A DNA stretch of 64,000 bases from a virus: positions 52,034 through 116,033 of the IMG/VR virus record IMGVR_UViG_3300045747_000454. One strand, written 5' to 3'. The notes under the pieces are model-generated. The model saw nothing but the letters and a program-made list of their open reading frames with translations, was not told where the DNA came from and did not search any database. Of the stretch, positions 40-64,000 are shown one piece after another (the stretch's first letter is position 1; the number at the start of each line of letters is the position of its first letter). The position numbers and the translations under genes are program-made.

Positions 40-531
40 TTACGGTAGGACGGCGTCCTTACGAATCAGCCAGACGCGCGTGACATCCTTACTCCAAGCC
101 TTGATGACATTCTTAGACCAACTGCGAAAGTTGGCGTCGTCAACCTTCTCGAGGTCCGTGACTCGAACGTAGCCGAGCTGCGCCGCGTGCCGCCCGACTA
201 TAGCATCGTAGAGCTTGACTCGGCTTAGCTCGCTGTTCTTGGAGCTGAAGCCAATGCCAAGTGGCTTGTTCTCGGCGACGGCTTTCTTCAACACGTCAAA
301 GACCGTGCTGAGAATGCGCAGAGCAACGATCCTGTCGGCTGGACTATCGCCAATCAGATCCCACGTTCCCTTTCGCTTGAAATCGACGATGTAGGTCTGA
401 CCACCCTGCCACCAATCGAGCGTGATAATGACAAGCTCATTCGAGCCATCCAGAAAGTGCGCCTCAATGCTCTTGTTGTTCTCTTCAACCTCGTACTTGT
501 ACGGAGAGTCAAGCAGCTCTTGCAGAATCAT
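40..531 (-). CDS. hypothetical protein with capsid-targeting-like leader (MILQELLD)
   Basis: Likely start is ATG 531, which forms an ATGA overlap with the gp6-like stop; the track's longer 40..762 ORF overlaps the gp6-like gene. Confidence 0.75.
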   Translation of the reverse strand: MILQELLDSPYKYEVEENNKSIEAHFLDGSNELVIITLDWWQGGQTYIVDFKRKGTWDLIGDSPADRIVALRILSTVFDVLKKAVAENKPLGIGFSSKNSELSRVKLYDAIVGRHAAQLGYVRVTDLEKVDDANFRSWSKNVIKAWSKDVTRVWLIRKDAVLP

Positions 532-9350: not shown

Positions 9351-10139
9351 TTACTTCTTCGCCTTCGCAGCCTTAGCAGCCGCCTTCGCTGCTTCCTTTG
9401 CATCAAGCGCAGCCTGCTTTGCAGCCGCCTTCTCAGCAGCCGCTGCAGCCTTGGCGTCAGCCTCCGCCTTCTCGGCTGCAGCTGCTGTCGCCAGCGATGC
9501 AGCTACCTTCTTGAAGATGATGTCAGACAGCGATTGCTTGACGCCGAGAATCTTGGCGAACGCAACCTTGTAACCCATCTTCACGGCGAGACGCGCCATC
9601 GAACCTGAGATCATGTGAACTGGAATGTCCTCGCCCTTTTCGGCGATGGCGAGAATCTCCTCAGACGGAGTTCCCTCGTCATCTGGGTCGCTGCGCTCCT
9701 CAAGCCCTGGCATCACGACGTGCTCGAGCTTCTCGCCGTTCGGACCGGTGAAGTACTTGTCAAGCAGCTCGATGTACTTGGACGCCCGGTCTGAACCTGC
9801 GGCGATGGCGTAGGGTTCGTAGCCGGCCTTCCGAACCTCCTCGAAGGCAGCCATGGCCGACGGGGCGGTGATGATCTTGACGCCGTTGGCTCGGCCGGAG
9901 GCCGTCATGAACTTGATGCGATCCTCAGCGCTCAGCGGGTTCTTGCTCAGATCCTTTGAGGTTTCGGCGCCGGCAACGACCACGACGATCGGCACCACGC
10001 CCTTGTGCTCACGCTCGAACTTCTTCATTCGGTCGATGACTGTGTAGTGTCCGGCGGTTGGCGGGTTGAAGCGACCAACGGCGACGACGGCTCGAGTCTT
10101 CTGCTGCCCAACCGTGTCCTCAAAAAGGTCTTGATCCAT
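9351..10139 (-). CDS. HIGH-superfamily nucleotidyltransferase (cytidylyltransferase/NMNAT-like) with Ala/Lys-rich tail
   Basis: GRFNPPTAGH, KNPLS, AGSDR and ISGS.AR motifs; start moved to ATG 10139 (GGAG RBS; TAAATA at 10163-10168). Confidence 0.8.
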   Translation of the reverse strand: MDQDLFEDTVGQQKTRAVVAVGRFNPPTAGHYTVIDRMKKFEREHKGVVPIVVVVAGAETSKDLSKNPLSAEDRIKFMTASGRANGVKIITAPSAMAAFEEVRKAGYEPYAIAAGSDRASKYIELLDKYFTGPNGEKLEHVVMPGLEERSDPDDEGTPSEEILAIAEKGEDIPVHMISGSMARLAVKMGYKVAFAKILGVKQSLSDIIFKKVAASLATAAAAEKAEADAKAAAAAEKAAAKQAALDAKEAAKAAAKAAKAKK

Positions 10140-24254: not shown

Positions 24255-24524
24255 ATGGAACACTCACGTCTCCTCCACCTCGCTGGCGTTCCACTCACGG
24301 AAGCCAAGGCCTCATCGCTCAACGACACAGAAAAGAAGTTCGCCGCAGCCGTGCGCGAGTACTTTCTGAACACGCTGAAGGACCGCATCGGCAATCCAGA
24401 CAACGGCTCCGACGTGCTCGTACAGTTTGAAGACGAGTGGGGCGACCTGCCACACGCCGTTGACTTCGTCGTTCGCAGCGTGATGAAGTCTGAAAAGGCC
24501 AGCGTTCGCAAAGAACTCAAATAA
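24255..24524 (+). CDS. small prohead-core-associated protein (N-terminus SRLLHLAGVPLTE)
   Basis: Head operon context; N-terminus paralogous to the next gene. Confidence 0.7.
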   Translation: MEHSRLLHLAGVPLTEAKASSLNDTEKKFAAAVREYFLNTLKDRIGNPDNGSDVLVQFEDEWGDLPHAVDFVVRSVMKSEKASVRKELK

Positions 24525-41092: not shown

Positions 41093-41877
41093 TCTCTAAC
41101 TACCACTTTGACAATCAGCTGCGCGCTTACATGCTGCAGTTCGTCAGCATCTTCTACGGACTGCAGGTGCAGACTGGCAAGGGCGAGTGCGATGAACCTG
41201 AGTTCATTCAAGTGCCAGTCGTCATCGGCAACAAGGACAAGGTCGTTGCTGCCATCATGACTGGCAACACCAACAATCGGTCGTTCGCGCTGCCGCTGAT
41301 GTCTGCTCACCTCGTCTCACTTGCACAGGCGCCAGAGCGCCGCAAGGTGCAGGCGTACGTCGACCAGCGCGTCACGATGAAGGCTGGTGGTGTGTTCCCA
41401 GATGACCTGACGGTTGTCAAGCGCGCCATGCCAATCCCATACAACATGACGCTCGAGCTGTCCATCTACGCCTCGAACATGCAGCAGCGCGATCAGATTC
41501 TCGAGCAGCTGCTGGTGCTGTTCAACCCAGACCTGCAGATTCAAAAGAGCGATGGACCATTCGACTGGACGAAGTTGACGAAGGTCGAGCTGACCGACAT
41601 CAGCAACGAGGAGAATTATCCGACTGGCACTGACAAGCGGATAATCACCTGGACTCTAATGTTCGAGGTTCCAATCTATCTGAGCATTCCAATGGGCGTC
41701 AAGGACGATCTGGTGCGCCGCATCACGATTCGCATCGGCGACCTTGACAGCATGCAGATTGGCGTCGTTGATGAGAACGGTGAGATTCTGCCGTTCGGCA
41801 CCGTGCTGACCACGCTTGACATCACGACTCGCGACCCGTCTGGTCCGACACCATTCCCACCGACGCCACTGCCATGA
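41089..41877 (+). CDS. tail terminator / sheath stabiliser, gp15-like
   Basis: Y.FD.QLR.Y..QF..IF; VPV..G; LP.MS; PIPYNMT.ELSIYA.N..Q..QILEQ.L.LFNP. Confidence 0.88.
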   Translation: MISNYHFDNQLRAYMLQFVSIFYGLQVQTGKGECDEPEFIQVPVVIGNKDKVVAAIMTGNTNNRSFALPLMSAHLVSLAQAPERRKVQAYVDQRVTMKAGGVFPDDLTVVKRAMPIPYNMTLELSIYASNMQQRDQILEQLLVLFNPDLQIQKSDGPFDWTKLTKVELTDISNEENYPTGTDKRIITWTLMFEVPIYLSIPMGVKDDLVRRITIRIGDLDSMQIGVVDENGEILPFGTVLTTLDITTRDPSGPTPFPPTPLP

Positions 41878-45409: not shown

Positions 45410-45450
45410 GCTGTAAATAGACGCAGCACAATCCACACCGGAGATGACAC

Positions 45451-46089
45451 ATGAAGGTCACTGAACTATTCGAAGCCTACTCAGTTCTGCCAAAGCTTGA
45501 GAACATTGGAACCATCGGCGTCAAGCAGGCTGGCAACGTCTACACCGTGTCAGCCAGCGCCAAGTCAGGTCCCATCGTGGCCGGCATCATGAGCGTTTGC
45601 AAGACGCTCGGCAGCAAGAAGGGCTACACGCTCAAGACCCTCACTGGCAAGGTCATCGACCAATCGGTGCTGTTCAAGCTCTATGACACTCGCCCATACG
45701 GCGTGAAGGTCGTGTCCGACGAGCCGAACGCCGCCGAGGTGATTCAGAAGGCAGCGGAGTCCGCTACCGCTGGAGTCATCTCTGACTTCAAGAAGATGGT
45801 GCAGCACAAGAAGGACGCGCCGAAGCGTAAGGCTGAAGCGTCGAAGTACGCTGCCGCTGGTCGCCGTGAAGACATGAAGAAGTACGACGAGCTCTACGGC
45901 AAGGGTACTTGGAACCGTGTCACGTACAAGCAAGAAGGTGGCGACGACGGCTATCAGTACGTCGTGCGCGTCGATGGCAGAGTGATTGACAATGGTCTCA
46001 CGCTGTCTTCAGCCAAGTACGAGAAGCGTGAAGCGGTCAAGCGTCTCGCCAAGAAGGAAGGTCTGGGAACCTTCGGGAAGAAGTCATGA
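45451..46089 (+). CDS. basic hypothetical protein with leader MKVTELFE
   Basis: Late promoter, GGAG RBS. Confidence 0.75.
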   Translation: MKVTELFEAYSVLPKLENIGTIGVKQAGNVYTVSASAKSGPIVAGIMSVCKTLGSKKGYTLKTLTGKVIDQSVLFKLYDTRPYGVKVVSDEPNAAEVIQKAAESATAGVISDFKKMVQHKKDAPKRKAEASKYAAAGRREDMKKYDELYGKGTWNRVTYKQEGGDDGYQYVVRVDGRVIDNGLTLSSAKYEKREAVKRLAKKEGLGTFGKKS

Positions 46090-46433
46090 AGGTAACTGAA
46101 CTATTCGAAAGTCTGGCACCAGGTCAAGCGGCTTGGAAGGCTGAGATGACGAAAAAGGGAGCCGTCAAGTTCAAGCGCGACGAGCACGGCGGTGGCGCCG
46201 TTGATCGCATCGTCGCCTACAACGAGGCTGGCAAGGTCGTTGGTGGCTTCAATCTGAAGGCACGCGTCGCCGAAGGCGTCAAGGACAACTCCGAGAAGCT
46301 GGCAACGCTGAAGCGCCGCCTTCGTGAGCTGACAACTGACTTTCACAACATGGGCTACACCTTCGGTGAGGCTGAGCGCAAGCTTCGCGTCAAGCAGATC
46401 AAAGACGAGATTGCCGAGATCGAGGCGAAGTGA
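46086..46433 (+). CDS. hypothetical protein with leader MKVTELFE
   Basis: Same 8-aa leader as the upstream gene; ATGA overlap. Confidence 0.75.
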   Translation: MKVTELFESLAPGQAAWKAEMTKKGAVKFKRDEHGGGAVDRIVAYNEAGKVVGGFNLKARVAEGVKDNSEKLATLKRRLRELTTDFHNMGYTFGEAERKLRVKQIKDEIAEIEAK

Positions 46434-46993
46434 TCACCTTCAAGCAGTTCCTCGAAGAGGAAGAACGAACCATCCACGCCAAGAAGATCAAGGACGCAAA
46501 GCCTTGGTCTGCTAAGCTGGCTGAGGGCGACTACACCATCGGTGACGTCACGTTCAGCGCAGCCAATGGTCTTGGCGCGGTGCCGTACAATCAAGAGGTC
46601 AACTACTTCGGCTTCGTCGGGATGACAAAGCCATCAACGTTTCTAGAGCTCGCTCTGCCGCACGACGGTCAGCGTGAGCTTGACGCGAGCAACATTCAGC
46701 GGCTGATTGAGGAGGGCTACGCGTGTGGCATTCCGTTCATGCAGCTTCGACTGAACGACGAGGGTCTGCCACGCATCGAGGGGCATGAGGGTCGAGCTCG
46801 CATGATTGCCATTCAGAAGATTCTCGGCGATCAACCAATCCCAGTTCACTTTCTGCTGATGAACGGACTGCGCTCGAAGAACCTGACGCCAGAGCGTCTC
46901 GAAGCTATTCGGGATGGCATCGAGTCTGAGAACGGCAGCAAGTACGTTCGACATCCATTCTCACGAATCTACGTCAAGGGCGAAGCCGCCTAA
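46430..46993 (+). CDS. ParB/sulfiredoxin-like domain protein with leader MITFKQFLEE
   Basis: P..FL.LA...I...IEEG...GIPF.....RIEGHEGRARMIAI..I.GD..IPV. Confidence 0.6.
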   Translation: MITFKQFLEEEERTIHAKKIKDAKPWSAKLAEGDYTIGDVTFSAANGLGAVPYNQEVNYFGFVGMTKPSTFLELALPHDGQRELDASNIQRLIEEGYACGIPFMQLRLNDEGLPRIEGHEGRARMIAIQKILGDQPIPVHFLLMNGLRSKNLTPERLEAIRDGIESENGSKYVRHPFSRIYVKGEAA

Positions 46994-50907: not shown

Positions 50908-50955
50908 GTCGTATCCTGAAAGCAGATAAATAGGTTCATCACACTTGGACCGTAA

Positions 50956-52317: not shown

Positions 52318-52769
52318 TGGCACATCAAGGTCGCTTCATTCCAAAGAACCCGCAGAAGTACGTGGGGCGCAGCACGAACCAAATCATGTTTCGGTCGTCG
52401 TGGGAGTGCGCCTTCATGAAGTGGCTCGACACCAACAATGCCATTCTGCGCTGGGGTTCAGAAGAGCTCGCCATTCCGTACGTGCATCCCTTTGACGGGC
52501 GCATGCATCGGTACTATCCAGACATGGTCATCATGTACATGGACACGACCGGCGCGGTCAAGCGCGAGATCATCGAGATCAAGCCGCACAAGGAAAGCGT
52601 TGTGACGCCAAAGATGACCGATCGCGATCGTCAAGCGCTCATGATCAATCAAGCAAAGTGGAAGTACGCCGCTGAGTACGCCGAGAAGAACGGCGCAGTC
52701 TTTCGCGTGCTCACTGAGCAAACCATGTTCAAGCAAAAGCCGAAGAAGGCAGTAGGAGCAGCAGTATGA
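52317..52769 (+). CDS. head completion protein, T4 gp4-like (TnsA-type nuclease)
   Basis: GRF.PKNPQKY.G; FRSSWE; W.SEE..IPY; RYYPD; IEIKP; NQAKW; F.VLTE. Confidence 0.93.
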   Translation: MAHQGRFIPKNPQKYVGRSTNQIMFRSSWECAFMKWLDTNNAILRWGSEELAIPYVHPFDGRMHRYYPDMVIMYMDTTGAVKREIIEIKPHKESVVTPKMTDRDRQALMINQAKWKYAAEYAEKNGAVFRVLTEQTMFKQKPKKAVGAAV

Positions 52770-53053
52770 AGGTCAATGAACTACTCGATGAAGGTTGGGC
52801 GAGCAAGACAGCGATGATCGCTGCGCCATTCGCTATCGCCGTTGGGACTGCCTACGTTGCGCCAAAGGCAACGATCGACGGCAACACCTACGACAAGACA
52901 ACGATCCACATGATGGACAAGGCAAAGGACCTCAAGCACGGCGTGACCACGCTGCACGGCAAGAAGGTCAAGGTCGTGTACGGCACCGTCACGTCGCAAG
53001 CAAAGGGTGGTCCACGCGACATCAAGGTCTACGCAGTGAAGGACGACCAATGA
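52766..53053 (+). CDS. small protein with leader MKVNELLDE and a hydrophobic segment
   Basis: AGGAG RBS; ATGA overlaps at both ends. Confidence 0.65.
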   Translation: MKVNELLDEGWASKTAMIAAPFAIAVGTAYVAPKATIDGNTYDKTTIHMMDKAKDLKHGVTTLHGKKVKVVYGTVTSQAKGGPRDIKVYAVKDDQ

Positions 53054-53520
53054 GCGACGTTCGCACTCTCGGCAAGGTCAAGATTACCAACCCATTGGAT
53101 GATCTCTTCAACACGCTGCCGAACGATCTCGAAGAGGCGGACAACTACGTTGGCGTCACTGAGGGTGAGCTCGCGGTAGCGCAGGGCAACGATGGCACCG
53201 CGGTCGTCGAGAAGGACGACGAGGACATCGAGATCGATCGCAAGGTCGATGAGGTCTACGAGGCAGCCATCGGCGCCTTCAACACGCAGACCGCCTACCT
53301 CGAGGTCATCGAGCCACGCTACGCCGCTCGCAACGCAGAGGTCGCCGCTAACTATCTGAACATCGCGCTGAACGCAGCGTCGGTGCGCGCCAAGGTCAAG
53401 GGTGATCGCAAGAAGAACGCAGCGTTCGTACCGTTCTCAAACAACAAGACAAGCGGTGCGGTCGTCGCCTCGCGTGAAGATCTGCTGCGCATGATGGCAA
53501 CGGACGCGGAGCTGAAGTGA
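53050..53520 (+). CDS. putative terminase small subunit (gp16-like)
   Basis: EPRY.AR..EVA..YL..AL.A...K and C-terminal VVASREDLLRM; start ATG 53050. Confidence 0.6.
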   Translation: MSDVRTLGKVKITNPLDDLFNTLPNDLEEADNYVGVTEGELAVAQGNDGTAVVEKDDEDIEIDRKVDEVYEAAIGAFNTQTAYLEVIEPRYAARNAEVAANYLNIALNAASVRAKVKGDRKKNAAFVPFSNNKTSGAVVASREDLLRMMATDAELK

Positions 53521-54425
53521 TCACGTTCAAGCAGTTCCTTAGCCTCGGCGAGGCTATCATCAAGCCGTGGGAGCAGTTCTCCGTTGAGACGGAGAAGGCT
53601 GTCGGCATGCTGAACTCCTCGCATCGTGATGGTCTCAAGGCCATCACGACCGGCGGGCTGCTGTTCCGCGGGTTCAAGGAGCTCGGCGTTGAGCGTGGCT
53701 CGATGGCGATCGTCGATCCATCGAAGGGCGAGCGCACCTCACGCGACTCGAACAACATGTATCAGCTCGCGATGGATCGCTCTGCTGCGCTGAAGGATTA
53801 TCCGTCTCGCAGCAAGGCGCTCATCTGCTCGACGAGCGCCTACGACGCTCGCCACTACGGTACGCCGTACGTCATCGTGCCAGTCGACGGTACGAAGATT
53901 GCGGTGTCGCAGTCTGAAGACTTCGCAACTGAGACGTTCATGAAGGGCAGCTTCACCTCGTCCGTTGAAAGCTTCAGCACGCTGCTACGGCGCGTCGCTG
54001 AGCAACTCAAGATTGATCACCGCGGTGATGGCAAGTTCACTGATGCTGATGCGCTCAATCGTGTCTTCGACTCTAAGACGCCTGAAGAGATCGCTGAGGC
54101 ATTCGACTCGTACAGCTACTGTGTGATATCGAAAGAAGATTTGATCGACTTCTTTGAGAAGCACAAGAAGAATCGCTTTGACGCGATCGCCACGTTCAGC
54201 TTTACACCAGCGACGATCAGCACTCGCCTCGTCGAGTACGGCGAGAACCTTGAACCAATCTACGACTACGAGTGCTGGCTCAGCGCGCGCTGCATGGCAA
54301 TCCCGTGCCCGATGTTCGGCGACATTCTGAATCGACTTAAGGAGCAGAGCTTCCCGATTCACGCTAAGTACAAGACGATGATGGAAAACGGAATCTTTCC
54401 AAAGATGATTGGGCGACAAGAGTGA
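53517..54425 (+). CDS. array-2A paralogue 1, putative ART-fold internal head protein
   Basis: LLFRG / RTSRDSNN.YQL / RS..LICSTS...A.HYG / ECW; leader MITFKQFL. Confidence 0.62.
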   Translation: MITFKQFLSLGEAIIKPWEQFSVETEKAVGMLNSSHRDGLKAITTGGLLFRGFKELGVERGSMAIVDPSKGERTSRDSNNMYQLAMDRSAALKDYPSRSKALICSTSAYDARHYGTPYVIVPVDGTKIAVSQSEDFATETFMKGSFTSSVESFSTLLRRVAEQLKIDHRGDGKFTDADALNRVFDSKTPEEIAEAFDSYSYCVISKEDLIDFFEKHKKNRFDAIATFSFTPATISTRLVEYGENLEPIYDYECWLSARCMAIPCPMFGDILNRLKEQSFPIHAKYKTMMENGIFPKMIGRQE

Positions 54426-55291
54426 TCACCTTCAAGCAATACCTCAACGAGGTCATTCTCAAGAAGTGGGAGGAGGAGCCAGTCGAACACGACAAGCTCT
54501 TCGACCTGCTGATAAAGAGCGAGTCAGCGCTGAAGGCTATCGAGAACGGTGGGCTGCTGTTCCGCGGCTTCAATACAGCGACCGTCAAGGACTCTGTCTA
54601 CATCGACCCGACGTCTGCTGCCCGCACCTCACGCGACTCGTACAACCTGTATCAGCTTGGTATGGACCGGTCTGTCTCGCTACAAGACTATCCGAAGCGC
54701 TCGCACTCGCTCATCTGCTCGACGAGCTGGCACCACGCTGATGACTATGGAAACGTGTTCGTCGTGTTTCCACCGAACAACGCGAAGGTCGTGATGTCGA
54801 ACGTCTCAGACTTTCTAGAGCAGCCGATTGAGAGCGACTTTGGTAGTCGCGTCACAAGCCTCGACAAGTTCTTTCGACGCCTCTGCAATCTGCTCGACAT
54901 CGAGCCTAATGAGCAGGGCAAGTTCATCGACGCTAAGCCAATCAACGCTGCACTCGACGCCGTCACATCGCGCCGTGCTGCCGAGCTCGTGTTCGACGCA
55001 GCATCACCGGCAGACCTCATCTACTACGAAAAGTTCTTCGAGACGCACAAGCGCAATCGCTTTGACGCGCTCGCCAGCGATGAGCTGACACCACGAGCTC
55101 TTGAGCTGCGCCTCAAGAAGTTTGGCGAGACGCTCTCTCCTGATCGCGGCGTCGAGTGCTGGGTTGACACGCGCTGCCTCGTCATCGCAGTGTCGCGCTT
55201 CGCCTCAATCATTCGACAGCTTGAGGATGCCGACTACTCAATCTATCGACAGTACATCGGTGACGCGACCGCGTGGCACTACAAGAACTAA
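54422..55291 (+). CDS. array-2A paralogue 2, putative ART-fold internal head protein
   Basis: LLFRG / SLICSTS...ADDYG / ECW; leader MITFKQYLNE. Confidence 0.62.
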   Translation: MITFKQYLNEVILKKWEEEPVEHDKLFDLLIKSESALKAIENGGLLFRGFNTATVKDSVYIDPTSAARTSRDSYNLYQLGMDRSVSLQDYPKRSHSLICSTSWHHADDYGNVFVVFPPNNAKVVMSNVSDFLEQPIESDFGSRVTSLDKFFRRLCNLLDIEPNEQGKFIDAKPINAALDAVTSRRAAELVFDAASPADLIYYEKFFETHKRNRFDALASDELTPRALELRLKKFGETLSPDRGVECWVDTRCLVIAVSRFASIIRQLEDADYSIYRQYIGDATAWHYKN

Positions 55292-55293
55292 CT

Positions 55294-56157
55294 ATGCTGA
55301 CCTTCAAAGAATACCTGGAAGAAGCCGTTCTCAAGCCGTGGAAAGAGAAGGACATCGACACCAAGAAGCTGACGAAGCGATTGAGCGAGACGCACTCGAA
55401 CTGGTTGTCTGCCGTGACGAATGGTGGACTGCTGTTCCGTGGTCAGCACGACATACACGGTGAGGTTCGTCAGATCAATCCAGCGAAGGGTCTTCGCTCG
55501 TCGCGCGACACGAACAACATCTATCAGCTCGCGATGGACATCTCACCAGCAATGAAGCTCTATCCATCGCGCGGTAAGTCGCTCATCTGCTCAACAACGC
55601 CAAGTGGTGCCAGCACCTACGGCTACGCGTACGCGCTCATTCCGGCAAACGACGCGAAGATTGCCGTCTCTGAAGAGGGTGACTTTCTCGAGCAGACTAT
55701 TCACGATTCGATTGTGTGCGATGAGATTCGAGCCTTCGGACCTGACCTTCAACGTCTAGTAAAAGACTGCGGCGGCGAGGTCAAAGATACGTTTGAAACG
55801 GCAGCAGAGCTCAACAAGATCTTCTCCAAGCTCAATGCGAAGAAGTTCACAACAGCGCTTGTTGCCCGCGCGTCAAACACAATTGACTCTGGCGCTCAAG
55901 CGATGCTGCTCAAGGAGTTTGAGCGAAACGTTCACAACCGCTTCGACTATCTCGCCGCTGATTCAATGTCGCCTCTTCAGCTCGATCTTCGCCTGGTTCC
56001 GTACGGATCCTTTCTCAGCGACAAGAGCGTCGAGTGCTGGGTCTCATCGAAGTGCCTCATGATTCCGATGAAGATCTTCAAGGGCATGTTGCAAGAGCTA
56101 GACAAGAGCGGACACGAGATCGCTCACAAGTACGCTAGCATGGCGTGGCAAACATGA
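55294..56157 (+). CDS. array-2A paralogue 3, putative ART-fold internal head protein
   Basis: LLFRG / SLICSTT...ASTYG / ECW; leader MLTFKEYLEE (ATG 55294). Confidence 0.62.
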   Translation: MLTFKEYLEEAVLKPWKEKDIDTKKLTKRLSETHSNWLSAVTNGGLLFRGQHDIHGEVRQINPAKGLRSSRDTNNIYQLAMDISPAMKLYPSRGKSLICSTTPSGASTYGYAYALIPANDAKIAVSEEGDFLEQTIHDSIVCDEIRAFGPDLQRLVKDCGGEVKDTFETAAELNKIFSKLNAKKFTTALVARASNTIDSGAQAMLLKEFERNVHNRFDYLAADSMSPLQLDLRLVPYGSFLSDKSVECWVSSKCLMIPMKIFKGMLQELDKSGHEIAHKYASMAWQT

Positions 56158-57023
56158 TCACCTTCAAAGAGTTCCTCGCCGAGAAGGTCATCAAGAAGTG
56201 GGAGAGCCAGAATCTCACGGTTCGCAAGGCGATCGACATTCTGAACACCTCACATCGGGACGGGCTTAGCGCCATCTCTAACGGTGGGCTGCTGTTTCGT
56301 GGCAATGAGAACGCGCCTGACGCCATTCACACGATCGACCCGCGAACTGGCATTCGAACCTCAAGAGACTCGAACAGCCTGTACCAGCTCGCAATGGAGC
56401 GCTCGACAGCGCTGCAAGACTATCCGTCTCGCAGCAAGTCGCTCATCTGCTCGACGAGCTTTCTAAACGCCAACGCCTATGGTTCGGTGTACGTTGTGAT
56501 TCCAGAGGATGGAACGCAGATTGCTGTTTATGAGAAGCGAGATCTGCTCTACGCCAAGTACAAGACCGGCACCTTCACTCAAGGTCTTGAGAGCTTCAGC
56601 TACCAGCTTGAAAATCTTGCCACTAGTCTTGGCTACGAGCCTAAGGGATACAAGTTCACGGACGCTGCCATGGTCAACAAAGCTTTCGCAAAGGCGACGG
56701 CTGAGGAGTTCGTCACTGAGCTGGCTGCCGCGATGCCGAAGACATTCAACTGGCCAACGTACACCAAGATCTTCGAGAAGGTCAAGAACAATCGCTTCGA
56801 CTACATCGCCTCGCAAGACCTAACCCCGGCAACTTTGAAGCTGAGCCTGCATAAATACGGCAGTGCCCTCGGTGTCACGAACGTCAACAGCCCTCACGGA
56901 AAAGAGTGCTGGTTCTCAGCAAAGGCGATCTTGATTCCAGTCAGCATCTTTCGCGAGATTCTGACTGAGCTGGAGACGCAAGGACACCCGATTCACAAGG
57001 CTTACCAGAAGAACGCGATATGA
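56154..57023 (+). CDS. array-2A paralogue 4, putative ART-fold internal head protein
   Basis: LLFRG / SLICSTS...ANAYG / ECW; leader MITFKEFLAE (ATG 56154). Confidence 0.62.
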   Translation: MITFKEFLAEKVIKKWESQNLTVRKAIDILNTSHRDGLSAISNGGLLFRGNENAPDAIHTIDPRTGIRTSRDSNSLYQLAMERSTALQDYPSRSKSLICSTSFLNANAYGSVYVVIPEDGTQIAVYEKRDLLYAKYKTGTFTQGLESFSYQLENLATSLGYEPKGYKFTDAAMVNKAFAKATAEEFVTELAAAMPKTFNWPTYTKIFEKVKNNRFDYIASQDLTPATLKLSLHKYGSALGVTNVNSPHGKECWFSAKAILIPVSIFREILTELETQGHPIHKAYQKNAI

Positions 57024-57784
57024 TCACCTTCAAGCAGTATCTCGACGAATCAATCAACGACAAGGGTCTCTTCAAGGCGATCTTCGTCATCGGGCTGCCT
57101 GGCTCTGGCAAGAGCTACACGATCACGAAGCTCAGCGGCGGCGTTGAGCCGCGCATCGTCAACACCGACCGTGCTGTTGAGCACCTCACTGGCATCACGA
57201 AGAGCAAGAAGAACATTCGAACCGACGCAAAGACCTTCGACAAGAATGAGGATGAGGTCGATGACCAGTGGACTCAGGACATTGCCGACTCGGCGCAGCG
57301 CATCACGGTCAACACGCTCACTGGCTACATCGATGGCATGCTGCCGCTCTTCGTCGACGGCACCTCGAACAACGTATCGCGCATCATGCACCGTGTCGGC
57401 ATTCTCGAATCGCTTGGCTACGACGTGGGTATCGTGTTTGTGAACGCCACCTTCGAAACCGCTGTGCAGCGCGCCAACAACCGTCGTCGCAAGGTCACGC
57501 AGGACTTCATCAAGTTCGTCGCCGATCAGAACGCCGAGAACGTCGCCTATCTGAAGTCGAAGACTACCTTCTTCCGTCAGGTCGACAACGACGCAGGTCA
57601 GCTCAACGATGACGCCTTGAAGAAGGCTTACAAGTCGGTGCAAGCGTTCTTCAGCGCACCGCTCAAGAATCCAGTTGGTAAGCGCACGCTCGCCAAGCTT
57701 GAAGAGACGAAGCAGAAGTATCTGAAGCCATCGATCGTCACGGATGACAAGCTCAAGCAGCTCGTCAATGGGTGGTACAAATGA
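57020..57784 (+). CDS. P-loop kinase (zeta-toxin/AAA_33-like) with leader MITFKQYLDE
   Basis: GLPGSGKS, VNTD, FVDGT, LGYDV..VFV, A.QR...R.RKV. Confidence 0.8.
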   Translation: MITFKQYLDESINDKGLFKAIFVIGLPGSGKSYTITKLSGGVEPRIVNTDRAVEHLTGITKSKKNIRTDAKTFDKNEDEVDDQWTQDIADSAQRITVNTLTGYIDGMLPLFVDGTSNNVSRIMHRVGILESLGYDVGIVFVNATFETAVQRANNRRRKVTQDFIKFVADQNAENVAYLKSKTTFFRQVDNDAGQLNDDALKKAYKSVQAFFSAPLKNPVGKRTLAKLEETKQKYLKPSIVTDDKLKQLVNGWYK

Positions 57785-58566
57785 AGCTCGCCGAACTCTA
57801 CGAAGCCGCTGCTGGTAAGGAGCTTCAGTTTGAGCCGGTGCCTGATGTTCAGAAGGCGATTGACCTGCTCAACGCTCACTGCAAGGACGCGCTGTGGATG
57901 CTGCACAACAACACGCCGATCTGGCGTGGTTTTTCGCACGCGCCAAACTTGCTGTTTCAAATGATCGACACGAGCAAGACCGAGCGAGTCAGCGAGAACA
58001 CATCGAACTACTACACTGCCATTCTCGACAACAATCCGAAGATGGCGAAGTATCCGAAGCGCAGCAGGTCGCTCATCTGCTCGATGGACAGGCATGATGC
58101 TGAAGCCTTTGCGTCTGGTAATCTTAGTGCCTTCGCCATCATCCCATTTGACGGCACCAAGATTGGCGCTGTCAACGAGGCCGACATGTGGAACGTTCAA
58201 GTGTCGATCTTTGGCCTAACTGAAAGCATCTCCAATATCAATGAGGTCTACGAGCAGTGGGGCATTGAGGACAACATTCGTAGCCTTGAGGAGTTTGCTG
58301 AGAACCTTCGAGCCGGCGACGTCAAGCCAAGTCTGAAGTACGGCAGTGCAAGGCTTTCAATCACGTATGACGTTAAGGAAAACTTCATGGACGAGCTGTA
58401 CGATGCCTACTCGCCACACAAGCTCGGCTTCTCTTTGCACACCACCTCTAATCTGCACGGCGTCGAAGGTGAGGTCTGGGTCGGCGGTCGAGTCATGATG
58501 ATTCACCCAGACATGTTGGACAAGCTTGTCAAGACCTACAAGTCACTTACCAAGGGCGCCAAGTGA
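57781..58566 (+). CDS. array-2B paralogue 1, putative ART-fold internal head protein
   Basis: IWRG / R.SENT.NYYT / SLICS....A.AF / GEVWV; leader MKLAELYE. Confidence 0.6.
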   Translation: MKLAELYEAAAGKELQFEPVPDVQKAIDLLNAHCKDALWMLHNNTPIWRGFSHAPNLLFQMIDTSKTERVSENTSNYYTAILDNNPKMAKYPKRSRSLICSMDRHDAEAFASGNLSAFAIIPFDGTKIGAVNEADMWNVQVSIFGLTESISNINEVYEQWGIEDNIRSLEEFAENLRAGDVKPSLKYGSARLSITYDVKENFMDELYDAYSPHKLGFSLHTTSNLHGVEGEVWVGGRVMMIHPDMLDKLVKTYKSLTKGAK

Positions 58567-59354
58567 ACCTACAAGAGCTACACGAATCTGCCGTCTACGG
58601 CAAGGACATGCAGATTGAGAGTAAGGGTGTCAAAGACGCCATTGACCTTCTCAACAAGCACTGCAAGAAGGCGCTGTGGATGTTGCACGACAACAATCCG
58701 CTGTGGCGCGGGCACAAGCATTCGCTTGAAGACTTCTCAACCGTCGACACCTCCAAGTCGGAGCGCGCCAGCACCAACACGCGCAACTACTACACAATCA
58801 TCCTCGACAACAATCCGAAGATGGCTGGCTGGCCAAAGCGCAGCAAGTCGCTCATCTGCTCGAAAGATCTTGATCGTGCGTTTGGCTACGCGCAGCACAA
58901 TAGCAGCTGGCTCTACGCCTTGATTCCATATGACGACGCCAAGATCGGCGCTGTGAACAGCGAGGACATCTGGGACGCTAGAGTCTCCTTAGGGTCTGTG
59001 ACGCAGGAGATTGAAGAGTGGAATGACTTCTGGCGCTATCTTGGCGCAGCCGAAAGCATCGAGGGGCTTGAGAAGATTGCGGCACGAGTGAAGGCTGGCG
59101 ACATTCATCAGCTGGATAAGATGCTGACAGCCGAGCAACGGCAAGACCTGATGGGCACCATCTTCGACGCGTACGATCCAAAGAGGCTTGGCTTCACGCT
59201 TCACAACTCAGCGACCGTGAAGAGAGCTAAGTTTGGTGAGGTCTGGGTCGAGGGCAAGGTCATGCTGATCAAGAAGAAGATGTGGGACCGCATTCGCGCG
59301 TCGTACAAGGAGTTGAGCAAGGCAGCTGGGCAAACGGTTGAGGACGACGAATGA
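58563..59354 (+). CDS. array-2B paralogue 2, putative ART-fold internal head protein
   Basis: LWRG / SLICS....AFGY / GEVWV; leader MNLQELHE. Confidence 0.6.
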   Translation: MNLQELHESAVYGKDMQIESKGVKDAIDLLNKHCKKALWMLHDNNPLWRGHKHSLEDFSTVDTSKSERASTNTRNYYTIILDNNPKMAGWPKRSKSLICSKDLDRAFGYAQHNSSWLYALIPYDDAKIGAVNSEDIWDARVSLGSVTQEIEEWNDFWRYLGAAESIEGLEKIAARVKAGDIHQLDKMLTAEQRQDLMGTIFDAYDPKRLGFTLHNSATVKRAKFGEVWVEGKVMLIKKKMWDRIRASYKELSKAAGQTVEDDE

Positions 59355-60124
59355 AGCTACAAGAACTCTATGAAGCCGCAGTCAAGGGCAAGGCGATCAA
59401 GTACGATCCGAAGAAGACGAAGGAGGCGATTGACATTCTCAACACGCACTGCAAGAACGCCCTTTGGATGCTGCACGAGAACAAGCCAATCTGGCGTGGT
59501 GCGAAGACGAACAAGGCTGCGCCGTTCCTCGTCGTTGACACGAGCCAGTCAGAGCGCAAGTCTGAGAACACGAAGAACTACTACACGGTCATTTTCGACA
59601 ACAATCCAGCAATGGCTGGCTTTCCAAAGCGCAGTCAGTCGCTCATTGGCACAACTGAGAAGACTCGGTCCTATGACTTCACTGGCTTCGGCTCGTACCT
59701 CTATGCCATGATTCCATTCGACGATGCCAAGATTGGCGCGGTGAATAGCTTCGACATCTGGGATGCGACGGTGTCGTTTGGCGACTTCGAGCAAGAGCTG
59801 AACTACATGAACAAGAAGTTCGAGCAAGCCGGCATTCCAGATACGATTGAGGGTCTCAAGGCCTTCGCCAAGAAGCTGAAGGATCCGAAGTTCGAGGTGC
59901 CAAGCGGCATGAAGTACATCTCACAAGAAGAGCGCAATGACTTCATGGCCTACCTCTATCGCGAGTACTCGCCAAAGAATCTTGGCTTCACGCTGCACAC
60001 CACCTCGAACATGAAGGGCGTTGAGGGCGAGGTCTGGGTTGGTGGCAAGGTCATGATGATCGAAGAGCCAATGTGGCAGCGCATTCGCAAGGCGTATGAC
60101 GCTGGCGTGCAGGATGACGAATGA
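59351..60124 (+). CDS. array-2B paralogue 3, putative ART-fold internal head protein
   Basis: IWRG / SLIGTT / GEVWV; leader MKLQELYE. Confidence 0.6.
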   Translation: MKLQELYEAAVKGKAIKYDPKKTKEAIDILNTHCKNALWMLHENKPIWRGAKTNKAAPFLVVDTSQSERKSENTKNYYTVIFDNNPAMAGFPKRSQSLIGTTEKTRSYDFTGFGSYLYAMIPFDDAKIGAVNSFDIWDATVSFGDFEQELNYMNKKFEQAGIPDTIEGLKAFAKKLKDPKFEVPSGMKYISQEERNDFMAYLYREYSPKNLGFTLHTTSNMKGVEGEVWVGGKVMMIEEPMWQRIRKAYDAGVQDDE

Positions 60125-60915
60125 GACTCGCTGAACTCTTCGAAGCCGAGGTCAAGGGATCGCCGCTGAAGCCTGAGGTCATTGAGAACGCGCTTGAGCT
60201 GTTCAAGACATCGTGCAAGAACGCGAAGTGGATGCTGGAGAAGGATCGTCCGATTTGGAAGGGCTTTCACGGAGTGCAGCCAGCGCCAGAAGGCAAGATC
60301 GCAGTCATCGACACGCACCAGTCAAAGCGCAAATCGCAGAACTCGCAAAACTACTACACTGAGATCCTCGATCACAGCAGCTACTTTGAGGGCTGGCCGA
60401 AGCGCAGTCAGTCGCTCATCTGCTCGCTCGACAAGAACTACGCCGAGGGCTACTCGCAGCGCAGCGGTGGGCTCTACGCAATCGTTCCGTTCAATGACGC
60501 GAAGATTGGCAGCGTCGAGGCCGTTGACATTTGGGGCGTTGAGTTTCAACCGTTCGGCGTTGGAAGCTCTATAGGTTTTGAGGACTTCAACTCTTGGCTT
60601 AAGCATCTCAAGATTACAGACACGATTGATGGCCTCTGCGACTTCGCCGAGAAGCTCGCCAATCGGGATGAAGATGCCGTCAAGGGCTTTGAAAAAGCGT
60701 TTCCAGAGGCGGCGAAGGACACGGACGTTCTCGACGACTTCATGGGTTATCTGAACGGCAGCCTGTCACCTGAGATTCTTGGGTTCGAACAGTACGATTC
60801 ACGATCAGTTCGCAACGCCATGGACGAGGCAGAGGTATGGGTGTCCGGCAAGGTGCTGATCATGACCGACAAGACCTGGGATGCTCTTGTTCTTCAGAAC
60901 AAGATGTCTGGGTGA
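60121..60915 (+). CDS. array-2B paralogue 4, putative ART-fold internal head protein
   Basis: IWKG / SLICS....AEGY / AEVWV; leader MRLAELFE. Confidence 0.6.
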   Translation: MRLAELFEAEVKGSPLKPEVIENALELFKTSCKNAKWMLEKDRPIWKGFHGVQPAPEGKIAVIDTHQSKRKSQNSQNYYTEILDHSSYFEGWPKRSQSLICSLDKNYAEGYSQRSGGLYAIVPFNDAKIGSVEAVDIWGVEFQPFGVGSSIGFEDFNSWLKHLKITDTIDGLCDFAEKLANRDEDAVKGFEKAFPEAAKDTDVLDDFMGYLNGSLSPEILGFEQYDSRSVRNAMDEAEVWVSGKVLIMTDKTWDALVLQNKMSG

Positions 60916-60948
60916 AGTAAATAGGCGATGCCTACAAACACCGACACC

Positions 60949-62076
60949 ATGATCACCTTCAAGCAGTTTCTCGCCGAGGCCAGCTCTGGCCCCGACAAGT
61001 GGGATAAGTACTTCGCCGACGCTGACACCGAGACGATCGTCAAGACCGACGGTGCGCAGCTCTACGACGTCTTCGGCACGCCGGTCGAGAAGGAGGTCGC
61101 TCGCGGCGACAAGATCAAGGTCCTCGCCGGCGAGTACGACACCAAGCCACGCGTTCGCATTGGCAAGGGTGAGTATCGCATGAAGCTCACCGACATCGAC
61201 AAGCCATTCAAGATGGACCACACGGTCAAGAGCGATCTGAAGCCTGACGTGCTTGGTCTCACCGGCAAGCAGAAGATCTCGACGCTCGCCAAGAAAATCA
61301 AGACGCTCATCGACGATCACAGCGACATTCCTGAGGAGACCGGCGCCTATCTGAAGGCGCTCGTCGATCACGCTGAGAAGCCGACCGACACGAAGAAGAC
61401 TGACAAGGTCAAGGAGCTGTACGTCGACAATGGCATCAAGGGCGACACAGCCCTGACGAACTCGATCAGCCGCGACTTCATGGAGCTGCTCGGACCATTC
61501 TTCGTTGTCAACGAGAAGCCAGAGTTCAAGGGTGGCACAGCCAACTTCCCAGAGCTCGGCAATGCTCCGCTGTTCGACTTTGAGGTTGAGAAGGACGATC
61601 AGACGACGCAGTTCTCCTCGAAGAAGTCAGGCAGCAACAGCAACACGCTGAAGGTCAGCGAGGTCGTCAAGCTGGTGGATGGCAACGCAGCGCTGAAGAA
61701 GAAGTACAAGCGCGAGTTTGATTTGATGACGATCATCAACACCTCCTCCGTGAAGCTTGCTCCTGCCAAGATCAACGACTGGCTTGCGACGACGTTCCCA
61801 GGCAAGTACAAGAAGGCTGCAGCGCCGACCGACGATACGACGATTGCTCGTCTCGAAGCCTCGACCGTCAAGTGGATCAATGAGCAGGCTGGACTGAACT
61901 TTCTGCCGCTCGTGCAGCTTTCCATTCCAGATCTCTGGTACGTTAAGTCGAAGTTGAACTCTGACGGCACGATCAAGGTTGAACCGCTCAAGTCTGGTCG
62001 CGACATCTCGAAGGCCAATCTGCGCAGCAAGTCCTCACCAGGCCACCTTGCTGACAAAATTGGCTTCGCAATGTAA
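60949..62076 (+). CDS. hypothetical protein with leader MITFKQFLAE; possible PD-(D/E)xK nuclease domain
   Basis: TAAATA at 60918-60923; DF.E.LGP...FP...N.PLFDF.....QFSSK. Confidence 0.55.
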   Translation: MITFKQFLAEASSGPDKWDKYFADADTETIVKTDGAQLYDVFGTPVEKEVARGDKIKVLAGEYDTKPRVRIGKGEYRMKLTDIDKPFKMDHTVKSDLKPDVLGLTGKQKISTLAKKIKTLIDDHSDIPEETGAYLKALVDHAEKPTDTKKTDKVKELYVDNGIKGDTALTNSISRDFMELLGPFFVVNEKPEFKGGTANFPELGNAPLFDFEVEKDDQTTQFSSKKSGSNSNTLKVSEVVKLVDGNAALKKKYKREFDLMTIINTSSVKLAPAKINDWLATTFPGKYKKAAAPTDDTTIARLEASTVKWINEQAGLNFLPLVQLSIPDLWYVKSKLNSDGTIKVEPLKSGRDISKANLRSKSSPGHLADKIGFAM

Positions 62077-62119: not shown

Positions 62120-64000
62120 ATGTCCATTCTGCAAGAACTCACCTCTTCGGCGTACAATACGTCGGAGCTCAAGGCCATTCAGAGCTTTCTACTGGCAGAG
62201 AGCAAGACGCTCTCCGACCTCACGCTGAAGACCTGGCTCGGTACGGGCGAGAATCAAATCGCTAAGCGCGCTGCTGCGCTGCTCGACGACGACCTCGAAG
62301 CGCTGTACGCCTACTACAAGAGCAAGCCACGTCCAAAGGACACTGTTGGCGAGATGCGCTACGCCGCCATCATGTCGGCGTACAAGAAGCGTCACCACAT
62401 CACCGAAGCACAAGACGGCGAGCTCTCCGTTGGCGACACTGTCGAGGTCTCTGGCAACGTTCAGTTTCAAGACTGCGTCGGCGAGGTCGAAAGCCTGCAC
62501 GGTGGCTTCGTTGCCGTGAAGATCTACAGCTCGAACAGCACTCACTCATTCCACGCCTCTGACCTGCGCAAGATCGATGACGATCACGACCATGGCGATG
62601 ATGGTGATAACGAAGATGAGTACGATGGCGGTGACGGTGATGAATCGTTCTTCGTGGTCATTCACGACAGCGACGAGAACAAGTCGTTCATCGGCGAGTT
62701 CGAGAAGGACGGTGGTCGCTGGCGCGAGCACGTGGTGTCTGGCAAGCCGCCATACGCCTGGGGTGGTCGATTCATGAGCTACCTCAGTGCTCACGAGATC
62801 ATGTCGATGCTGACCCGCGACTTCAAGCACTACGAGGTCGAAGGTCCATTCGACAGCAAGGAAGAAGCCGTTGAGTTCGTTCACGGCAATCACGGTCACG
62901 ACACGCTGAAGGAAAGCGAAGAGCTCAAGGCGCTTGGTCGCAACATCAAGAAGGGCAAGAAGCCACCAGAAGATGAGTTGCCACCAGCTAATGATGAGCT
63001 GCCACCTGAGGACGGCGAGACTCCGCCAGTCGACGATGAGGCATCAACCGACGAGCCAGCACCAGAAGACGGTGATGTGCCTGCTGACGATGAGCTGCCA
63101 GCCGATGACGCTGCGCCGACCGACGAGCCGCCTGCCGATGAAGAGCCAGAAACAACGACCGCTGACACCGATACAGTGTCCGCCGACGCTGTCACGCCTG
63201 AGTTCAAGGTTGGCGACGTCGTCAAGCCGAACAAGGGTCAGCACGCTGGCGAACCACATGAGGTCGTTGGCATTCACCCAGACGGTGGTCTGCTCATCAA
63301 GCCACAGGGCCTCGATGACCAGGCAATCAAGTACACCGCCAAGTCGAAGACAGCCAAGATTCGCACCGACGACGTTGCCATCGTCGAGAGTCAGCAGCTG
63401 AAGCGTGGTCTGCTCAAGGCCGTCACTGAGACTCGTGTCGACAACGGTGCGCTGACGATGCCTGAGCTGCTCAAGCTCCGCAACGGTCTGTACGAAGCCG
63501 GCGACATGGTCGGCTATCGCGTCCTCGTTCAAGCCATCACCGAAGCCAAGAGCGGTGGCAAGCCACGCATGAAGGAAGTTGAGGGCAAGCTCGCAGCGCA
63601 CGCCAAGAGCAAGGGTGATCGCGAAGCCAAGTACGGCACGCTGTCGCCAGGCGACCAAGTGTCGCACGAGCAGACTCGCACGCGTCTGTTGAAGGACCTG
63701 TCGCGTGAGCGCAGCAAGGCCAACTGCTCTGAGGGCAAGGTCGGCGACTTCGTCGCAAAGGTCAAGCGCGGTGCCGAAGCAACTCAGAAGGCTCGCGGTG
63801 AAGCCGCAAAGATCTGGGGTTCGAAGGATGAAGACGAAGCCAAGAAGCACGTGAAGAACAGCAACCGCTACTCCAACCTCGGCACCGAGCGATCAGGTAA
63901 GTCCGACTACGTCCCACCGAAGAGCGCGCTGACCAAGCTGGCTGGCGCCGTCATGGGTCACCCAACCGGCGCGCCGAAGTACAAGGTCGGTGACACCGTC
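62120..64000 (+). CDS. large multidomain late protein, truncated by the window end (not in ORF track)
   Basis: TAAATA at 62088-62093, GGAG RBS, ATG 62120, open for 627 codons to the edge; MSILQEL leader, three (S/K)VGD.V KOW-like motifs, P/D/E-rich linker. Confidence 0.85.
   Translation, partial: MSILQELTSSAYNTSELKAIQSFLLAESKTLSDLTLKTWLGTGENQIAKRAAALLDDDLEALYAYYKSKPRPKDTVGEMRYAAIMSAYKKRHHITEAQDGELSVGDTVEVSGNVQFQDCVGEVESLHGGFVAVKIYSSNSTHSFHASDLRKIDDDHDHGDDGDNEDEYDGGDGDESFFVVIHDSDENKSFIGEFEKDGGRWREHVVSGKPPYAWGGRFMSYLSAHEIMSMLTRDFKHYEVEGPFDSKEEAVEFVHGNHGHDTLKESEELKALGRNIKKGKKPPEDELPPANDELPPEDGETPPVDDEASTDEPAPEDGDVPADDELPADDAAPTDEPPADEEPETTTADTDTVSADAVTPEFKVGDVVKPNKGQHAGEPHEVVGIHPDGGLLIKPQGLDDQAIKYTAKSKTAKIRTDDVAIVESQQLKRGLLKAVTETRVDNGALTMPELLKLRNGLYEAGDMVGYRVLVQAITEAKSGGKPRMKEVEGKLAAHAKSKGDREAKYGTLSPGDQVSHEQTRTRLLKDLSRERSKANCSEGKVGDFVAKVKRGAEATQKARGEAAKIWGSKDEDEAKKHVKNSNRYSNLGTERSGKSDYVPPKSALTKLAGAVMGHPTGAPKYKVGDTV

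Follow-up and report, generated by a model that had tools for sequence, protein, structure and literature searches.

Short N-terminal leaders resembling T4 capsid-targeting sequences on at least 20 putative late genes of a jumbo phage fragment

Gene content of the window

The window analyzed here comprises 64,000 nucleotides (positions 52,034 to 116,033 of the IMG/VR virus record IMGVR_UViG_3300045747_000454). By its sequence, it is part of the genome of a T4-superfamily jumbo phage that encodes a gp21-type prohead protease. Coordinates of all features are collected in Table 1. The acidic protein encoded at 25295-26182 matched only phrog_10922, a phrog without known function; from the position of its gene, it may be the docking partner of the leaders described below. 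No match was obtained when two stretches of 11-12 kb were compared with the phage collection by megablast. Searches of PHROGs and Pfam returned no match for the two small head-module proteins or for the genes at 45451, 46086, 46430, 60949, 14450, 52766, and 62120.

Table 1. Head genes, leader-bearing genes, and TAAATA boxes of the window.
Feature	Position	Strand	Remarks
Portal protein, gp20 type	21920..23608	+	Pfam Portal_T4, E 2.8e-89
Prohead protease, T4 gp21 type	23643..24251	+	Pfam Peptidase_S77, E 5.8e-24
Two small head-module proteins, shared RLLHLAG...LTE N-terminus, candidate core proteins	24255..24839	+	RsoM2USA_380 start identical
Acidic L-x-E-rich protein, gp22-scaffold position	25295..26182	+	Between protease and capsid gene; composition
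Major capsid protein, gp23 type	26210..27562	+	51% identity to RsoM2USA capsid protein; aligns with T4 gp23
TAAATA late-promoter-like box	34680..34685	+	Heads run 34708-43421
TAAATA box	45414..45419	+	Heads 45451-46993
TAAATA box	50927..50932	+	Heads run 50956-60915
TAAATA box	60918..60923	+	Heads 60949-62076
Class I MMTFKDFIAE, family A body	37220..37879	+	
Class I MITFRQYLEE, Amidoligase_2 body	41874..43421	+	Leader-bearing orthologues in IMG/VR
Class I ITFKQFLEE, GTG start, body without family match	46430..46993	+	IMG/VR orthologues with same leader
Class I ITFKQFLSLGE, GTG start, family B1	53517..54425	+	L-G-E site shifted two residues
Class I ITFKQYLNE, GTG start, family B1	54422..55291	+	
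Class I MLTFKEYLEE, family B1	55294..56157	+	
Class I MITFKEFLAE, family B1	56154..57023	+	
Class I MITFKQYLDE, P-loop kinase (Zeta_toxin / AAA_33)	57020..57784	+	Pfam
Class I MITFKQFLAE, 375 aa body without family match	60949..62076	+	
Five class II, family A, M[KIN]LxDLFE	37876..41092 (starts 37876, 38517, 39154, 39753, 40412)	+	AF2 model
Two adjacent class II, MKVTELFE	45451..46433 (starts 45451, 46086)	+	Unrelated bodies
Four class II, family B2, MxLxEL[YHF]E	57781..60915 (starts 57781, 58563, 59351, 60121)	+	
Loose MILQELLD, 163 aa, no function assigned	40..531	-	Start 531
Loose MDQDLFE, cytidylyltransferase-like protein	9351..10139	-	Start 10139
Loose MKLNELYG...LNE, 155 aa	14450..14917	+	TAAATA box at 14422
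Loose MLLQELTV, family A paralogue	36567..37223	+	
Loose MKVNELLDE, then hydrophobic stretch	52766..53053	+	Putative member
Loose MSILQELT, large ORF running off window	62120..64000	+	Putative member

Leader motifs and putative late gene context

When the complete 116,033-base contig was translated in all six frames, the class I core ([ILM]TF[KR][QED][FY][LI]) was found nine times, each time directly after an ATG or GTG opening a long open reading frame (ORF). The class II core (.[LV].[ED]L[FYH]E), which is a weak motif, was found 15 times, with 11 occurrences at ORF starts. A previous sequence-only reading had assigned class I leaders to nine genes and class II leaders to 11, and all 20 starts were confirmed by reading. 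At four of these starts (55294, 56154, 57781, and 60949), the longest ORF begins further upstream; in the last case, 60949 is favored because a mere 4 nt separate the TAAATA box at 60918 from the alternative, upstream ATG. The tripeptide L/I-x-E occupies residues 6-8 in all 11 class II leaders and residues 8-10 in eight of the nine class I leaders, the gene at 53517 having L-G-E at residues 10-12. At least 20 putative late genes share a short N-terminal address label ending in a prohead protease site.

Third-base identity between same-residue codon pairs of the leaders was 0.66 and 0.62, versus 0.56 and 0.53 expected from codon usage. Since the variation at synonymous sites is close to that predicted from codon usage, conservation at the DNA level (i.e. 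a repeat or promoter element) was rejected as the cause of the motif; the leaders are conserved as protein.

The hexamer TAAATA was observed 23 times versus 2.2 expected, an approximately tenfold enrichment. Every strict leader (20 of 20) is found in a run of same-strand genes with such a box upstream. That leaders are confined to TAAATA units, as had been claimed, agrees with their presence in 20 of 81 box-downstream ORFs versus 0 of 34 others (Fisher p = 7e-4; the classification is crude and the paralogues are non-independent). The boxes are putative promoters, and the leader genes would be expressed late.

The initial estimate of about 26 tagged genes included six looser leaders. As 6 of 95 other ORFs also have [LI]-x-E among their first 10 residues, these six looser leaders cannot be told from chance by motif alone, which leaves 20 solid and six unproven genes. 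The gene at 36567 belongs with the family A paralogues, and similar N-termini are retained in orthologues of a 350 kb relative for 531(-), 10139(-), and 14450 (the G001 orthologues start with MVLAELLD, MEEFIFE, and MKLHELKLFEE, respectively). Distant IMG/VR homologues of 10139(-) start with MKLNELFE. For 52766 and 62120, no support for leader membership was found, and searches of IMG/VR and of PHROGs and Pfam gave no homologues of 52766.

Proteins behind the leaders

One superfamily, consisting of families A and B, carries 15 of the 20 strict leaders, and shared descent explains part of the leader repetition within the window. The proposal that the leaders sit on unrelated folds consequently applies only partly inside the window, but it holds across metagenomes (see below). 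In otherwise confident models, the first 5-6 residues of the leader had pLDDT values below 50.

Conserved columns of families A and B comprise an Arg (xRG), a Ser/Thr, and a Glu, suggesting from sequence alone a candidate R-S-E or H-Y-E triad. Possibly, these families adopt an ADP-ribosyltransferase (ART) fold, the signal for which is weak. In Pfam, PDB-profile, and BFVD searches, neither family was linked to T4 Alt or Mod or to any other ART. Profiles of families A and B gave only noise against PDB sequences, a Foldseek comparison of the family B model with the PDB gave nothing below E 0.3, and the strong BFVD matches were exclusively uncharacterized jumbo-phage proteins, including Atu_ph07 gp53 and gp54. 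The view of the cargo as enzymes is backed by Pfam matches for three bodies and by the weak ART-fold signal for fifteen. The proposed cargo set consists of 15 paralogues from a single superfamily specific to phages, together with a P-loop kinase resembling zeta toxins, a member of the amidoligase family, and several small proteins without assigned function; the cytidylyltransferase-like enzyme is probably also cargo.

Occurrence of the leader in other genomes

The exact start MITFKQFL was found in at least 100 IMG/VR stretches, always opening an ORF, and 68 of 93 such ORFs had E at position 10. Their bodies fall into 36 protein clusters unrelated by BLAST. All five large contigs bearing this leader encode a Peptidase_S77. 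Orthologues of 60949 in IMG/VR (59-60% identity) have the same leader, and RsoM2USA_254, the orthologue of the kinase at 57020, starts with MTTFKEYLLE.

Orthologous bodies may also differ in their N-termini. Some family B2 orthologues begin with a class I leader and some with a class II leader, and in others an N-domain of 60 residues precedes an internal class I motif. (A 75-residue ORF at 24884 was considered as kin of the N-domain of the long B2 orthologues, but the comparison showed no relation.) In Atu_ph07 gp53, a family B body is followed within the same polypeptide by the kinase, which here is encoded by a separate gene with its own leader. Because the leader occurs on unrelated bodies and is swapped between orthologues, plain paralogy was rejected as the whole explanation. 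These sequence comparisons indicate that the leader is a separate evolutionary module exchanged between bodies, with one copy per separately encoded polypeptide.

In XacN1, a capsid-level relative, the class I DNA pattern is absent, so that the leader sequence is not uniform across capsid-level relatives. The class II DNA pattern was only partly informative in IMG/VR, as about half of its matches fall deep within longer open frames. Among its ORF-start matches, one large cluster is an unrelated family of proteins of 412-430 aa, which we would guess to be HK97-type capsid proteins.

Virion proteins of related phages

In purified virions of Atu_ph07, 131 of 714 proteins were detected (PMC6102473 Table S5). 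Atu_ph07 ORFs were mapped to this list by exact molecular weight. All 13 ORFs matching M[KR]Wx[QED]LxE turned out to be virion proteins (gp53-62, gp381, gp408, and gp482), and 11 of them are homologous to family A, family B, or the kinase of the window; gp381 and gp482 had no match among the tagged proteins of the window. Peptide coverage in virions was 12-46% for gp53-63 (PMC6102473). In RsoM2USA, ORF89, ORF132, and ORF438 begin with M[KL]TFKQ[FY] and represent three of the ten identified virion bands (PMC8504454). The class I pattern has only seven matches in this genome, compared with 486 annotated ORFs, and the three virion proteins are among the seven. The presence of proteins with matching labels in purified virions of two relatives supports the view that the leader marks cargo carried in the particle, virion presence being shown only in these relatives.

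Interpretation

Our preferred reading, to which we assign a probability of about 0.75, is that the short N-terminal peptides are T4-type capsid-targeting propeptides, with packaging shown only in relatives. The T4 N-termini taken from NC_000866 are MKTYQEFIAE for IPII and IPIII, MKTFKEF for IPI, and MELITELFDE for Alt; the counterparts in the window are MMTFKDFIAE, MITFKEFLAE, and MKLxELFE. The likeness between IPIII and the leader at 37220, noted in the sequence-only reading, is thereby confirmed. Cleavage by gp21 takes place after L/I-X-E, and for packaging the 10 N-terminal residues of IPIII are enough (PMC9026906); the targeting sequence is the only shared part of the T-even internal proteins (PMC3012670). 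The gene at 53517 has no E at position 10, which counts against the reading.

By analogy with T4, the cargo genes would be transcribed late from TAAATA promoters, and the leader (~8-10 residues, disordered in models) would bind the scaffolding core during prohead assembly. The gp21-type Peptidase_S77 protease (23643-24251) is predicted to remove the leaders after their terminal L-x-E, which would free the cargo inside the head, and the cargo would exit with the DNA at infection. The earlier idea of a portable T4-like tag marking late proteins for packaging is supported by the Peptidase_S77 gene, the L/I-x-E ends, the 36 clusters, the swapped leaders, and the virions of relatives.

On this reading, it is the T4 capsid-targeting system in a new lineage and at an unusual scale. 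As in the T4 internal proteins, otherwise unrelated late proteins carry a leader of about 10 residues, M-x-T-[FY]-[KQ]-[EQ]-F-[IL]-x-E, that terminates in the L/I-x-E site of a protease of the gp21 type. Such genes number three in T4, and about 10 are known from the T-even phages together, whereas nine class I and 11 class II leaders were found here in a third of a genome. The bodies are mostly enzyme-like and 200-500 residues long, in contrast to the small basic GmrSD inhibitors of T-even phages, and relatives of this phage, unlike T4, also have the motif internally, behind the 60-residue N-domain. The class II form MKLxELFE resembles the MELITELFDE of Alt, a head-packaged and injected ADP-ribosyltransferase whose short propeptide is removed by gp21.

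Alternatively, the leader could be an assembly or docking signal for the tail, baseplate, whiskers, or hair fibres, the tagged proteins being structural or surface components that are not injected. We regard this as unlikely. The virion proteomes of relatives do not resolve compartments, the array of family A genes stands in a stretch of neck and tail genes, directly ahead of gp15, and Atu_ph07 has hair-like fibres as well as 102 virion proteins without assigned function (PMC6102473). However, the leader has the form of the T4 head-targeting sequence ending in a prohead protease site, Peptidase_S77 accompanies it in 5/5 large contigs, the bodies resemble small enzymes rather than fibres, and a cargo-less copy of the motif is found within the RsoM2USA head gene cluster.

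Somewhat less probable still is a shared N-terminus without a targeting role, arising by inheritance among paralogues or as a preferred translation start of tightly coupled late genes (ATGA/GTGA overlaps, no Shine-Dalgarno). Such an origin would fit the 15 leaders on one superfamily and the many starts that run into the preceding stop codon and have no ribosome-binding site, but hardly the same leader on 36 unrelated clusters and its swapping on orthologous bodies, or synonymous sites varying almost to the extent expected from codon usage. Copies of the motif that stand internally, behind the 60-residue domain, or at the C-terminus of RsoM2USA_381 can have no role in initiation, and the presence of all 13 leader-bearing Atu_ph07 proteins in virions also speaks against this alternative. 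Finally, the peptide could be a degradation or regulatory tag that a phage or host protease reads in the cytoplasm and that keeps toxic enzymes in check up to their sequestration, packaging then being incidental. This is very improbable. Several bodies are toxin-like (possible ARTs and the zeta-toxin-like kinase), and a disordered, exposed N-terminus might act as a degron, but this phage group offers no precedent, the Atu_ph07 proteins accumulate in virions at the peptide coverage given above, and the motif agrees with both the T4 capsid-targeting sequence and the prohead protease site.

Capsid-targeting propeptides have parallels in other head-delivered systems. In the jumbo phages phiKZ, 201phi2-1, and SPN3US, dozens of packaged proteins, among them inner-body and ejection proteins, have propeptides cut after Glu by a diverged gp21 homologue; these phages differ in belonging to another lineage, in the site (S/A-X-E), and in their long and varied propeptides, with no single short shared leader. 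In MuF- or portal-fused polymorphic effectors and in polyvalent proteins, diverse effector domains, often ARTs, have an N-terminal packaging module in common through which they are delivered in phage heads (PMC9503650). Their module is a complete structural domain fused to the effector, whereas here it is a peptide of 8-10 residues that is predicted to be removable.

If a MITFKQFLxE or MKLxELFE start together with a gp21-type protease marks cargo, the packaged and probably injected proteome of this phage group would become predictable from sequence. Such a signature would give a functional label to 'hypothetical' families and bring out candidate host-takeover or anti-defence effectors. The T4 capsid-targeting principle, already used for loading foreign proteins into T4 heads, would be extended to much larger capsids.

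Tentatively, and with the odds somewhat against so broad a view, the leader may be a general swappable label across the Atu_ph07 / RsoM2USA-like branch of T4-superfamily jumbo phages, defining a large unrecognized injected proteome (at least 36 IMG/VR body families, with expanded ART-like arrays, kinases, amidoligases, and nucleotidyltransferases). Copy number or position within the head would then depend on the leader class (MITFKQFLxE, MKLxELFE, M[KR]WxQLxE, or N-domain plus internal motif), and near-identical leader DNA would provide microhomology for the shuffling of cargo genes. In the adjacent genes at 45451 and 46086, the DNA encoding the two leaders is identical at 23 of 24 nt.

Leaders and their genomic setting

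All strict starts listed by the sequence-only reading were read as claimed: nine of class I (M[ILM]TF[KR][QED][FY][LI]xE) and eleven of class II (Mx[LV]x[ED]L[FYH]E), both classes terminating in L-x-E. Searching all six frames of the full contig gave nine occurrences of the class I core [ILM]TF[KR][QED][FY][LI], always directly after an ATG or GTG opening a long ORF, and 15 of the class II core.[LV].[ED]L[FYH]E, 11 of them at ORF starts. Codon pairs encoding the same residue agreed at the third base in 0.66 and 0.62 of cases, where codon usage predicts 0.56 and 0.53; synonymous positions vary, and therefore the constraint acts on the leader peptide.

Of the original figure of about 26 leader genes, these 20 are solid. 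By motif, the six looser leaders cannot be distinguished from chance, as 6 of 95 other ORFs also have [LI]-x-E in their first ten residues. Among the six, 36567 has tagged paralogues, and 531 and 10139 (starts on the minus strand) as well as 14450 have similar N-termini kept in orthologues of a 350 kb relative; 52766 and 62120 are without support for leader membership. The scale of tagging is unusual, with 20 solid genes on a third of the genome; a 97%-complete 350 kb relative has 14 tagged genes, and RsoM2USA has seven class I matches.

TAAATA boxes (23 observed vs. 2.2 expected) were positioned 20-40 nt before start codons. As had been proposed, strict leaders were confined to such putatively late units: each of the 20 follows a box and belongs to a run of genes on the same strand. 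By a crude classification in which paralogues are not independent, strict leaders opened 20 of 81 box-downstream ORFs and none of the 34 others (Fisher p = 7e-4).

The window (bases 52,034-116,033 of a 116,033-base IMG/VR record, completeness estimate 32%; G+C 56%) encodes T4-type portal, protease, gp15 and gp23-type capsid proteins, and its gene content therefore assigns it to a T4-superfamily jumbo phage. The capsid protein is also 45-47% identical to those of Xoo-sp13, XacN1 and Stenotrophomonas jumbo phages. A near-identical record was not found in the phage collection by megablast with two 11-12 kb stretches.

Features of the window, its contig (C1) and sequence stretches of relatives (L handles)
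Feature	Position	Strand	Remark
Portal	21920-23608	+	Portal_T4, E 2.8e-89
Prohead protease	23643-24251	+	Peptidase_S77, E 5.8e-24
Small proteins	24255-24524, 24543-24839		Between protease and scaffold candidate
Scaffold candidate	25295-26182		Named from position and composition only
Major capsid protein, gp23-type	26210-27562	+	51% identity to RsoM2USA capsid protein
Tail sheath stabiliser, gp15			T4-type gene, in window
Cytidylyltransferase-like protein	9351-10139	-	
Family A	36567-41092		7 paralogues, including loose 36567
Amidoligase_2 body	41874		
Family B1	53517-57023		4 paralogues
Zeta-toxin / AAA_33 P-loop kinase body	57020		
Family B2	57781-60915		4 paralogues
Atu_ph07 gp394	L249:5548-7002		Leader MQYTDLIE
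RsoM2USA ORF132	L107:35583-37607		Leader MKTFKQFL
RsoM2USA_274-283	L229:15364-21455		Tandem array
RsoM2USA_381	L003:5020-5247		75 residues, head gene cluster
ORF with kinase-like loop	C1:25847-26494		Upstream of window

Tagged proteins in virions of relatives

Absence of tagged proteins from virions had been named as refuting; in the published proteomes of two related jumbo phages, leader-bearing proteins were present in virions. Only ten virion bands were identified for Ralstonia phage RsoM2USA (PMC8504454), and three carry the leader: ORF89 (MKTFKQFLSE), ORF132 (MKTFKQFLNTLME) and ORF438 (MLTFKQYAQPILTE, eight residues in). Its genome has only 7 class I pattern matches vs. 486 annotated ORFs. 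In Agrobacterium phage Atu_ph07, 13 ORFs match the variant M[KR]Wx[QED]LxE. Assigned to published gp numbers by molecular weight (agreement within 0.01 kDa), all 13 (gp53-62, gp381, gp408, gp482) were detected in purified virions, in which 131 of 714 proteins were found (PMC6102473 Table S5). The adjoining gp63 (MRLFQLLE) was likewise detected. Homologues of the window's families A and B and of its kinase account for gp53-63 and gp408; gp381 and gp482 had no match among the window's tagged proteins.

That the leader addresses another virion compartment is less likely than head targeting. A degradation tag is also a less likely reading of a leader whose carriers are found in virions.

The virion-detected gp394 and ORF132 have 'WDKERYADIF' just after the leader in common and seem to represent an additional conserved cargo family. 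RsoM2USA_274-283 comprise ten paralogues of ~200 residues, mostly starting M[KR]L.EI (class II-like), two with M[RS]FK.WL.E.

Bodies and portability

Counting loose 36567, 15 of 20 tagged proteins form one superfamily. Weak BLAST matches and hhalign (82% probability, E 1e-5) connect its families A, B1 and B2. AlphaFold models reached pLDDT 92 and 87, with the first five or six residues below 50. The remaining bodies are unlike the superfamily and one another; those at 45451, 46086, 46430 and 60949 had no match in domain or family searches.

Five lines of evidence agree in presenting the leader as a portable module, and plain paralogy or a translation-start preference is accordingly the less likely explanation. 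DNA for exact MITFKQFL occurs in at least 100 IMG/VR stretches (chance expectation <1, a rough estimate). All 112 matches stand at the start of ORFs (56-522 residues), with Glu at position 10 in 68 of 93 and bodies falling into 36 clusters without BLAST similarity between them; all five large contigs with this leader encode Peptidase_S77. Metagenomic B2 orthologues, with a common body motif around 'LN.HCK.ALWML', have three kinds of start: (i) class I, MITFKQFLxE; (ii) class II, MKLQELFE; and (iii) an N-domain of 60 residues with an internal class I-like motif behind it. RsoM2USA_381 is this N-domain and motif standing alone, ending in ITFKDFIIAE plus three residues. The motif therefore appears to work, or at least is kept, away from the extreme N-terminus. 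Atu_ph07 gp53 carries the kinase behind a family B body in a single polypeptide, as in phrog_12810; in the window, the kinase has a gene and a leader to itself. Genes 45451 and 46086 are neighbours with unrelated bodies, and their leader-coding DNA (45451-45474, 46086-46109) matches at 23 of 24 nt, which suggests recent leader copying or recombination at the leader.

The N-domain (MP..ALKHLAKKA...) fused before B2 bodies was seen in metagenomic proteins P0013, P0023, P0024, P0026, P0036, P0043 and P0046.

Comparison with T4 and proposed function

T4 N-termini were taken from its genome record. Of the internal proteins (IPs), IPII and IPIII start MKTYQEFIAE and IPI MKTFKEF, while Alt starts MELITELFDE; counterparts are MMTFKDFIAE, MITFKEFLAE and MKLxELFE in the window and MKTFKQFLSE in RsoM2USA. 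T4 gp21 cleaves after L/I-X-E, the first ten residues of IPIII are enough for head incorporation, and Alt and the IPs are located in the prohead core (PMC9026906). T-even internal proteins are diverse, the targeting sequence alone being conserved (PMC3012670), and ip genes have been found through this leader (PMC12373910).

We consider it probable, at about three in four, that the leaders are T4-type capsid-targeting propeptides. Support comes from the motif, its position and portability, the co-occurring protease and the detection of tagged homologues in the virions of two relatives. The leaders would bind the scaffold and so bring many diversified late proteins into the core of the prohead, and the Peptidase_S77 protease would remove them after L-x-E. 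The cargo, with its predicted enzymatic activities, would then lie inside the head and be delivered with the DNA at infection.

The targeting principle is already known from T4. Our literature search found no paper on such leaders in this jumbo-phage branch, nor MITFKQFL and related strings. Broad surveys of packaged ADP-ribosyltransferases appeal to fusions with MuF or the portal and to gene neighbourhood, and to no short leader (PMC9503650, PMC7824862). The leader is of practical use for predicting packaged proteins.

The protease (MKILSE) and capsid protein (MQLIE) each contain L/I-x-E among residues 1-6, and a comparable site lies close to the N-terminus of T4 gp21 (PMC9026906). The two small proteins following the protease start alike (M..SRLLHLAG[VI].LTEAK) and differ in body; RsoM2USA_380 starts MDITRLKHLAGVPLLE. 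This start may be another head-core propeptide class. The ORF upstream of the window, which follows a TAAATA box at 24137, has a protein-kinase-like glycine-rich loop. One of its internal starts reads MKVQELLAE, and it may represent additional tagged cargo.
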